Positions 62,265 through 64,000 of a stretch of DNA of 64,000 bases are shown here, piece by piece. The notes under the pieces were generated by a model that was given only the letters and a program-made list of their open reading frames with translations, was not told where the DNA came from and ran no database searches. The DNA comes from Escherichia coli (GTDB taxonomy: Bacteria; Pseudomonadota; Gammaproteobacteria; Enterobacterales; Enterobacteriaceae). Made by a program: the position numbers and the translations under genes. The stretch's first letter is position 1, and the number at the start of each line of letters is the position of its first letter. The stretch lies in assembly GCF_003018115.1 (NCBI RefSeq), contig NZ_CP027457.1. One strand, written 5' to 3'.

Positions 62265-62627
62265 TTACTCTTCCCGGCCTTTACTCATACTTTTTTGGTC
62301 TTCATCCGGATAGTGTTTTTTTAGATATTCCAGGACGTTTTTATTGACCTTGTGTTGGGTATACACCCACCCTTTCCAGTAATCAGGCTGGTCCAGGTAA
62401 ACTTCTGGCGGAATGGTGAAATCAGAAAGCGTTAACCATTCGGCTAACAGATCGGGGTTTCGTTTCTGGATCAACTGCAACAGCATAATCAGCGACATGG
62501 CAGAGGCAGGAGCCGTACTATCGCCGCTTAAATACTTCCACACTGTCGACCGGTTCGAACGAAAAAGGATCGGTAGCAATGCCCGGTCCAGATTCATTTC
62601 ATTAAAAATCTTCTCAAATTCATTCAT
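62265..62627 (-). CDS. Hypothetical 120-aa protein
   Basis: ORF in AT-rich DNA; no recognisable family. It is not CueR, which I would expect next to ybbJ in K-12. Confidence 0.45.
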   Translation of the reverse strand: MNEFEKIFNEMNLDRALLPILFRSNRSTVWKYLSGDSTAPASAMSLIMLLQLIQKRNPDLLAEWLTLSDFTIPPEVYLDQPDYWKGWVYTQHKVNKNVLEYLKKHYPDEDQKSMSKGREE

Positions 62628-62993
62628 TTAAATTTTCCTGCCTGGCGTAAACCTCTTAAAAATTGAGATTTATCAAAGAAACGTATTTTAGCACACATCA
62701 GGAACCGCTTCACGTTTAGTCCAGAAACAGAATTTATTTCGCTTATCAAAACAAGTCTTTACTCTTTTTTACATTGAAAGAGCACGAAATAATTTCCTTT
62801 TTTATTTATATAAGAAACCATTTTTGTTTCTTATTGGTGATGTTTACGCTTACACCAGACAAAAATGCGCTTTACATCACACAAATGGCGGCGTAGATTT
62901 CGATTAAATTGCAACGTAGTTTATTTCTTAAAACAATATTATTTGTTTCTTATAGAAACATTAATACGACTTATTTTGAACAAGAGAAAATGA

Positions 62994-64000
62994 ATGAAAA
63001 CTGTAAACGTAGCTTTACTGGCACTCATAATTTCAGCAACATCCAGCCCTGTTGTTTTAGCTGGTGATACCATTGAAGCGGCGGCAACAGAGCTTTCAGC
63101 CATTAACTCTGGCATGTCGCAATCGGAGATTGAGCAGAAGATTACCCGCTTTTTAGAACGCACAGACAACAGCCCCGCTGCGTATACCTATTTGACTGAA
63201 CATCACTACATCCCTTCTGAAACACCTGATACCACTCAGACTCCCACTGTCCAGACAGATCCTGACGCAGGACAAAAAACCGTTGCCGCTACAGGTGATG
63301 TACAGACAACTGCTCGTTATCAGAGCATGATCAACGCCCGACAGTCTGCGGTAACTGACGCCCAGCAAACGCAAATTACAGAGCAACAGGCGCAGATCGT
63401 AGCCACACAAAAAACGCTCGCCGCGACTGGAGATACGCAAAATACCGCGCATTATCAGGAGATGATTAATGCCAGACTGGCGGCTCAAAATGAGGCTAAT
63501 CAGCGCACTACCACTGAACAAGGGCAGAAAATGAATGCGCTGACAACCGATGTGGCAGTACAACAGCAAAATGAAAGGACTCAATACGATAAACAAATAC
63601 AAAGTCTGGCGCAGGAGTCTGCCCAGGCACATGAACAAATTGACAGCCTGTCACAAGACGTAACCCAAACGCACCAACAGTTAACCAACACCCAAAAACG
63701 GGTTGCAGATAACAGCCAGCAAATTAACACGCTCAACAACCATTTCAGTTCGCTAAAAAACGAAGTTGATGACAATCGTAAAGAAGCCAATGCGGGAACT
63801 GCATCTGCCATCGCTATCGCCTCACAACCACAGGTTAAAACCGGTGACGTGATGATGGTGTCAGCGGGAGCGGGAACCTTCAACGGTGAATCTGCGGTGT
63901 CTGTAGGAACATCTTTTAATGCCGGAACGCATACCGTGATTAAAGCCGGTGTCTCTGCAGATACACAATCTGATTTCGGCGCGGGTGTCGGCGTGGGATA
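62994..64000 (+). CDS. YadA-like trimeric autotransporter adhesin (signal peptide, coiled-coil repeats, start of the C-terminal membrane anchor); 3' end beyond the window
   Basis: MKTVNVALLALIISATSSPVVLAGD signal peptide; Q/T-rich heptad repeats (ATGDVQTTARYQSMINARQ / ATGDTQNTAHYQEMINARL); anchor-like ...GTASAIAIASQPQ...GDVMMVSAGAGTFNGESAVSVGTSFNA...; open to the window end. Confidence 0.7.
   Translation, partial: MKTVNVALLALIISATSSPVVLAGDTIEAAATELSAINSGMSQSEIEQKITRFLERTDNSPAAYTYLTEHHYIPSETPDTTQTPTVQTDPDAGQKTVAATGDVQTTARYQSMINARQSAVTDAQQTQITEQQAQIVATQKTLAATGDTQNTAHYQEMINARLAAQNEANQRTTTEQGQKMNALTTDVAVQQQNERTQYDKQIQSLAQESAQAHEQIDSLSQDVTQTHQQLTNTQKRVADNSQQINTLNNHFSSLKNEVDDNRKEANAGTASAIAIASQPQVKTGDVMMVSAGAGTFNGESAVSVGTSFNAGTHTVIKAGVSADTQSDFGAGVGVG

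Follow-up and report, generated by a model that had tools for sequence, protein, structure and literature searches.

The 366-bp control region shared by z0640, which encodes a small protein, and the divergently oriented adhesin gene gmrA was analyzed within a 64,000-nucleotide stretch of Escherichia coli DNA (contig NZ_CP027457.1), referred to here as the window. We found that this spacer holds at least six copies of the short element RGAAAC and that these sites are enriched, deeply conserved, symmetric in their full form and co-varying with the helix-turn-helix (HTH) protein encoded by z0640. The sites are most likely read by the z0640 protein, for which they would probably serve as operators.

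RGAAAC sites between z0640 and the adhesin gene

An earlier note on this DNA had described two palindromes with a shared half-site upstream of the adhesin gene. Both are present and occupy the region 35-183 bp before the start codon (Table 1). The 8-mer GTTTCTTA occurs seven times in the window against 1.46 expected, and three of the seven copies fall within this spacer. As a local null, 5000 dinucleotide-preserving shuffles of the 366-bp spacer alone were generated. A perfect inverted repeat with 9-bp arms appeared in 331 of them (p about 0.06) and three copies of any 8-mer in 570 (p about 0.11). Taken alone, the palindromes are marginally above chance for AT-rich DNA. The hexamer AGAAAC/GTTTCT was found six times in the spacer (62677, 62723, 62813, 62826, 62945 and 62954), a number reached in none of the 5000 shuffles, and six copies of any non-trivial hexamer were reached in 42. 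Elsewhere in the window, AT-rich segments of 366 bp (GC < 0.36) carry 0-1 copies. The arrangements GTTTC-N5-GAAAC and GAAAC-N7-GTTTC are each present once in 64 kb, both in this spacer. The meaningful unit is RGAAAC, in at least six copies, rather than the 8-mer or the two palindromes.

The family of z0640 is tiny: one search gave 21 clusters, and another, over 1.84 billion proteins, gave 19 representatives (50% identity). Genomic contexts were recovered for an E. coli-like genome, Escherichia sp. E1V33, E. whittamii, Symbiopectobacterium, Pseudocitrobacter, metagenomic enterobacteria and distant members with 41-50% identity. In all of these but one, a z0640 homologue stood divergent to an adhesin-like gene, usually with a YadA anchor, across about 300-410 bp; the exception (locus L025) is an apparent remnant with no called gene in its 834-bp upstream gap. 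A profile search of genome contigs with a narrower alignment found only 4 species, and Pectobacterium loci sought in plasmids and viral contigs yielded nothing useful. Eleven spacers were aligned with a mean column identity of 61%. Pooled over these spacers, GAAAC occurred 68-69 times against 7.8-8.3 expected, an excess of about 8-fold. In a profile of 67 GAAAC sites, the preceding base (-1) was A in 73% and T in 9%, and an inverted partner GTTTC became apparent at -10 to -6, with C at -6 in 48% against a background of 19% (p = 1e-7) and G at -10 in 28% (p = 4e-4). Based on the A at -1 and this inverted partner, the full site reads gTTTCy-N3-RGAAAC, and palindrome 2 matches it perfectly. A direct spacing of 22 bp between sites was seen seven times. 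The marginal p values of the palindromes would agree with an accidental origin in AT-rich, low-complexity DNA. Despite these values we rejected chance because of the hexamer enrichment and the comparative data: the shuffle counts for this and for any hexamer, the slot-wise conservation across genera and the excess of GAAAC (68 against 7.8 over 11 spacers) make it extremely unlikely.

Within E. coli, the spacer was 94% identical over seven alleles. The core of palindrome 1, AGAAAC-N7-GTTTCT, was invariant in all seven, the changes falling in its spacer and outer bases, and the arrangement was retained in Symbiopectobacterium. In most other genera, the position of its right arm (S4) reads GTTTCC-AAT-AGAAAC. 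The right arm of palindrome 1 would then correspond to the left half of this operator, the right half of which appears to have decayed in E. coli. The earlier note had taken the palindromes as sites for a dimeric regulator; the conserved RGAAAC slots with their inverted partner bear this out, whereas the N7 geometry of palindrome 1 is not the conserved unit. Six non-redundant spacers of the alignment extend over the region of S1, and five of them have this site, which lies within the conserved block AAAATTGAGATTTATCAAAGAAACGnATTTTAnCAC. The AAAC of S2 was invariant in 11 of 11 aligned spacers (96th percentile of conservation). On the 3' side of the adhesin -10 element, other genera have copies of AGAAAC at 22-bp intervals. 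In E. coli, these correspond to TGCAAC (62910), a decayed sequence (62932) and, still intact, the AGAAAC in palindrome 2 (62954). The slot of the S6 right arm is AGAAAC in 4 of 7 non-redundant sequences, and in conservation the right arm of S7 reaches the 98th percentile. Divergent E. coli alleles differ in the left arm of palindrome 2 and share an unaltered CTTATAGAAACA.

The predicted adhesin promoter was the sole promoter-like match in the scan and is close to consensus (9/12 positions; 5/6 + 4/6). The most conserved hexamers of the spacer, CTTTAC (1.00) and GGCGTA (0.95), are part of it. We infer that transcription of the adhesin gene starts near 62906 on the plus strand and that of z0640 near 62678 on the minus strand. 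Relative to these predicted starts, S1 would lie at the z0640 start and S2 at about -46 of it. Palindrome 1 would be centered at about -84 of the adhesin start and S5, S6 and S7 would lie at about +5, +27 and +49, with palindrome 2 spanning about +39 to +55 of the predicted transcript.

Other conserved elements were noted in the same spacer. The GGCG directly 5' of the predicted -10 (62890-62895, GGCGTAGATT) is almost invariant across genera, which exceeds the need of a sigma-70 -10 element. The block TCAAAACAAGTCTTTACT at 62746-62763 is nearly invariant across genera as well, with a score of 0.95 for AAAACA (62748), and could be assigned to no promoter or known site. An FNR-like box, TTGAG-ATTT-ATCAA (62663-62676), adjoins the AGAAAC of S1 in the predicted z0640 leader. 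It is kept in orthologous spacers as TTGATATTTCTCAA, TTGAGATTAATCAA and TTGATGTGTATCAA, as the perfect TTGATAATTATCAA in locus L022 and as TTGATTTAGGTCAA in L021; across the window it shows no enrichment (4 copies, 2.9 expected).

Table 1. Coordinates and properties of the control region, its flanking genes and the sites and predicted promoters within it
Feature	Position	Strand	Description
z0640	62265..62627	-	open reading frame (ORF) of 120 amino acids (aa), from the ORF list; left flank of the spacer
Divergent control region	62628..62993	.	366 bp, 30% GC; common to z0640 and the adhesin operon
S1	62677..62682	+	AGAAAC half-site beside the predicted z0640 -10; about -4 to +2 of the predicted z0640 start
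Predicted z0640 extended -10	62685..62693	-	TGcTAAAAT; ATTTTA and CA nearly invariant in the 11-spacer alignment
S2	62714..62728	+	GTTTA-GTCCA-GAAAC, near-palindromic; AGAAAC (62723-62728) almost invariant across genera
Palindrome 1 (S3 and S4)	62810..62834	.	ATAAGAAAC-CATTTTT-GTTTCTTAT; perfect 9-bp arms, 7-bp spacer
Predicted sigma-70 adhesin promoter	62871..62899	+	-35 TTTACA (62871-76), 17-bp spacer, -10 TAGATT (62894-99)
S5	62910..62915	+	TGCAAC, weakened copy; (A/C/G)GAAAC in other genera; about +5
S6	62924..62937	.	TTTCTT-AA-AACAAT, putative decayed operator; TTCTnAnAGAAAC in other genera; 22 bp upstream of S7
Palindrome 2 (S7)	62944..62960	.	TGTTTCT-TAT-AGAAACA; perfect 7-bp arms, 3-bp spacer
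Adhesin gene (gmrA)	62994..64000	+	right flank of the spacer; start codon at 62994

The z0640 protein and the switch of the motif

At threshold, z0640 had no match in Pfam or NCBIfam. The best Pfam hint was MqsA_antitoxin (E = 0.081; 13.5 bits against a cut-off of 30), and HTH_3 and HTH_19 were hit by one family member each with E about 0.2. The curated profiles (HTH_3, HTH_19, HTH_31 and MqsA) hence do not place the protein in the XRE / Cro-C1 group. An AlphaFold (AF2) model calculated from 14 close homologues had a predicted local distance difference test score (pLDDT) of 58, which rose to 91 when distant members were added to give an 18-sequence alignment. In this model five helices form a bundle, and helices 2-3 make up the helix-turn-helix that presumably reads the DNA. 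The best fold matches were HigA2 (Foldseek probability 1.0; template modelling score, TM, 0.68 on target), Aca2, MqsA, C-proteins, P2 C and lambda cI, and the best structural matches are all XRE/Cro-type HTH domains of dimeric operator-binding proteins. From the model, z0640 is predicted to be an orphan XRE/Cro-like HTH protein. Invariant or near-invariant residues of the family (R23, N25, R26, S27, T28, K31 and Y32) cluster in the predicted recognition helix.

A natural variant was provided by the Hafnia-type branch. Here the protein is 41% identical and its recognition helix reads PRNTIFNYL instead of NRST[VI][WH]KYL, while the neighboring gene still encodes a trimeric autotransporter. A third form of this helix, PRATLWKYL, is seen in the Pectobacterium protein P0039. 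In the Hafnia-type spacers GAAAC is absent (0 against 3.8 expected) and GAACA is found 30 times (3.8 expected), with RGAACA repeats 22 bp apart and one copy just 3' of the predicted -10. In the spacers of the main group GAACA stays at background (6 against 7.8 expected). The motif changes together with the recognition helix of z0640, and a host regulator common to all these bacteria does not predict such a change.

Candidate readers of the sites and mode of action

The most serious rival is a host regulator conserved in Enterobacterales, with OmpR as the obvious candidate. OmpR sites are built from tandem direct 10-bp half-sites with degenerate G(A/T)(A/T)AC, those of ompF and ompC form phased tandem arrays, and in sites C2 and F2 the base before GAAAC is T. 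A host factor would also account for the conservation across genera. The C1 site of ompC, TTTACATTTTGAAACATCTA, contains TGAAACATCT and holds GAAACA (PMC2586830), and the gmrA transcript responds to osmolarity and pH, its level dropping when osmolarity is high or when the pH departs from 7 (Yang et al., 2018; PMC5826968). However, GAAAC is enriched 8-fold, whereas each of the OmpR-type variants GTTAC, GTAAC, GATAC and GTATC is depleted, with 3 copies where 8.1 are expected, and the T that precedes GAAAC in C1, too, is the exception in our profile, in which A prevails. The partner half-site is inverted here and not a direct repeat, and the spacing is 22 bp, not 20 bp, so that the tandem direct degenerate half-sites of OmpR are not what we found. 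In addition, a conserved host factor does not predict the GAACA switch in Hafnia-type modules, which have a different local HTH protein. We therefore regard OmpR, or another regulator of this kind, as an unlikely reader. Sites of Cra have the form GAAAC-N0-GTTTC and those of KdgR the form GAAAC-N3-GTTTC; both were rejected, as the only GAAAC...GTTTC pair in the spacer is separated by N7 and the conserved unit has the opposite polarity. Dam-dependent phase variation was also rejected, since no GATC was seen in the spacer by eye.

The earlier note had further proposed a nucleoid-associated silencer, and the palindromes might be nucleation or high-affinity sites for a protein such as H-NS, the targets of which typically depend on temperature. 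The spacer has 30% GC and lies within a horizontally acquired island, and TCGATTAAAT at 62900-62909, at the predicted adhesin start, resembles TCGATAAATT, the high-affinity motif of H-NS. Expression of gmrA is temperature-dependent, with a maximum at 37 °C and less at 30 °C (Yang et al., 2018; PMC5826968). Yet TCGATTAAAT is located outside the palindromes, occurs in Escherichia alleles only and is not conserved. H-NS recognizes the geometry of AT tracts and not a hexamer invariant across genera, and the sites are not AT-only but anchored by a conserved G and C. Moreover, equally AT-rich stretches of the window have 0-1 hexamers, and the motif co-varies with the local HTH protein. H-NS probably coats the region, but coating leaves the RGAAAC sites unexplained; the motif could be tied to no silencer of this class, and we consider this origin of the sites very unlikely. 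Action of the downstream sites in the mRNA leader, with palindrome 2 as a hairpin or the repeated AGAAAC as motifs bound by a protein or a small RNA, ranks behind H-NS in our estimate. S5-S7 would all lie in sense orientation in the predicted 5' untranslated region and palindrome 2 can form a 7-bp hairpin, but the leader folded no better than shuffles (z = -0.23), no Rfam match was obtained, the left arm of the hairpin is not conserved, and the motif also occurs upstream of both promoters and on both strands. Least probable of all is a fim-like invertible promoter. The 9-bp repeats ATAAGAAAC (62810-18) and GTTTCTTAT (62945-53) are perfect inverted copies and bracket the predicted promoter at 62871-62899. 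However, when 62819-62944 was inverted synthetically, none of 1413 genomes matched over the new junctions; 0 of them covered at least 80% of the construct, the best reaching 57% by the flanks only. The conserved module contains no recombinase gene, ORFs with an integrase domain being found only as insertion sequence (IS) remnants beside the degraded copy in L018, and other genera do not preserve the left arm of palindrome 2.

Several observations weigh against z0640 as the reader, or against details of the proposed operators. Beyond E. coli the left arm of S7 lacks conservation (20th percentile), and divergent E. coli alleles already have GTTGCT in its place; the outer bases of palindrome 1 vary as well. 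The Foldseek E-values are weak (none ≤ 0.001) and no Pfam HTH model scored over threshold. The co-variation concerns one divergent lineage, whose seven spacers belong to closely related proteins (90-97% identity with the query). As the whole module travels together, a local and a host reader cannot be told apart by linkage alone. The promoters are predictions, and a position of +39 to +55 is far downstream for an operator that would act by simple occlusion. Finally, in L022 (45% identity) the recognition helix is similar, yet the motif, GCAGAAAG/C, differs in part. The L022 spacer contains one GTTTC only, three copies of GCAGAAA(G/C), which may be another operator variant, and a Fur-box-like palindrome, TTATCATGATAA.

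We nevertheless favor z0640 and infer that it binds the two-fold symmetric operator as a dimer, which would contact one strong and one weaker half-site. With the 22-bp spacing, neighboring dimers would sit on the same face of the DNA. The likeliest action would be autorepression of z0640 together with repression of the adhesin promoter, and cooperative occupancy or a loop between palindromes 1 and 2, which are 130 bp apart, may contribute. Repression seems the more likely direction since the operators are found at and after the predicted starts of strong core promoters. A dedicated activator had been suggested in the earlier note. The dedicated regulator gains support from the XRE-type HTH neighbor z0640 and from the joint change of motif and helix; judged by the positions of the sites, activation would be the less likely direction, though z0640 may have a role as an anti-silencing activator. 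Upon attachment of O157 to HeLa cells, z0640, gmrA and z0638 all decrease together (Table S3 of Yang et al., 2018; PMC5826968), and this joint fall of three island genes fits either repression or activation.

The island module and related regulators

In the window, the E. coli chromosomal genes ybbO, cnoX, fetBA, qmcA and ybbJ are followed by O-island OI-29. Gene names were assigned with the primers in the supplement of Yang et al. (2018; PMC5826968): deletion primer F for z0640 is the reverse complement of 62629-62666, deletion primer R for gmrA matches 62955-62996 exactly, and cloning primer F-2 for gmrA corresponds to the start of the adhesin ORF. Judged from its sequence, the adhesin is a trimeric autotransporter of the YadA family with a signal peptide, a coiled-coil stalk and a C-terminal anchor. 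Its N-terminus, MKTVNVALLALIISATSSPVVLA, reads like a signal peptide, Pfam YadA_anchor was matched with E = 2.1e-9, the anchors of AtaA and Hia were matched among PDB sequences (1e-7 to 6e-5), and matches of the coiled-coil type were sub-threshold only. RefSeq labels the protein a YadA family autotransporter adhesin. The module was present in 1415 of 5426 complete E. coli genomes, about a quarter, and carriers include O157:H7, O55:H7, O145:H28 and avian pathogenic (APEC), neonatal meningitis (NMEC) and uropathogenic (UPEC) strains (Table S4 of Yang et al., 2018; PMC5826968).

In about 380 E. coli genomes, the same control region precedes a divergent adhesin allele that is longer (about 594 aa) and in which a stalk segment is duplicated (L005 3212-5014, L006 and L007). 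For the L005 allele, RefSeq covers the C-terminal 349 aa only (start 3965), so that the N-terminal half and the signal peptide are missed. In strain F8111-1SC3 (H1, NZ_CP024269.1), among the closest relatives, the adhesin gene is split by the IS4-like element ISVsa5. A 140-aa lipoprotein, z0638, and an ORF of 64-68 aa follow the adhesin gene in most modules across genera (L001 7996-8618; L011, L013 and L016), which suggests a conserved operon of adhesin, lipoprotein and small protein; z0638 gave only weak TraV and secretion-chaperone-like matches. The segment 62100-62220, just 3' of ybbJ, recurs dozens of times in an E. coli genome (median 25 places) and is evidently an element of the repetitive extragenic palindromic (REP) type at the island boundary.

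None of the papers searched describes the control region or treats z0640 as a regulator. The single function published for the module (Yang et al., 2018; PMC5826968) is DNA binding by the very protein that bears all hallmarks of an outer-membrane adhesin, while the HTH protein of the same island and its conserved array of putative operators are unstudied. Our results suggest re-examination of the GmrA-fliA model. With the operator consensus, a candidate regulator and the Hafnia-type GAACA as a natural specificity variant at hand, adhesin regulation becomes directly testable.

By analogy, the system would work like those of the small XRE-type autoregulators, that is C-proteins, Aca2, HigA and MqsA antitoxins, although by sequence z0640 falls in no curated family. 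The sites of OmpR at ompC and ompF resemble those described here in their GAAACA core, phased arrays and a target sensitive to osmolarity and pH, and differ from the strict RGAAAC, the inverted partner, the 22-bp period and the co-variation with a local HTH protein. The study of Yang et al. (2018; PMC5826968) concerned the same island and genes, and the HTH protein of that island is z0640. Among the fold matches of z0640, Aca2, HigA2 and MqsA are autoregulatory XRE-type HTH proteins as proposed for z0640, and MqsA provided the sole Pfam hint. All of them repress their own promoters via inverted repeats. Their operator sequences are unrelated to the RGAAAC sites, and their loci contain a toxin or anti-CRISPR partner instead of a trimeric autotransporter and a lipoprotein. 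C-proteins such as C.Esp1396I and C.AhdI are likewise small XRE-type HTH proteins that appear among the fold matches. Their dimers bind short palindromes with an AT-rich center, and two adjacent operators are filled cooperatively and control the own and the neighboring gene. The 5-bp arms around TTATA seen here have a geometry similar to that of the C-box. In contrast, C-box operators form one 35-bp pair, whereas z0640 would have at least six sites spread over about 280 bp. The z0640 protein is about 120 aa long with an extra C-terminal helical domain, compared with about 80 aa in C-proteins, lacks membership in that family at the sequence level, and has an adhesin and not a restriction enzyme as its partner.
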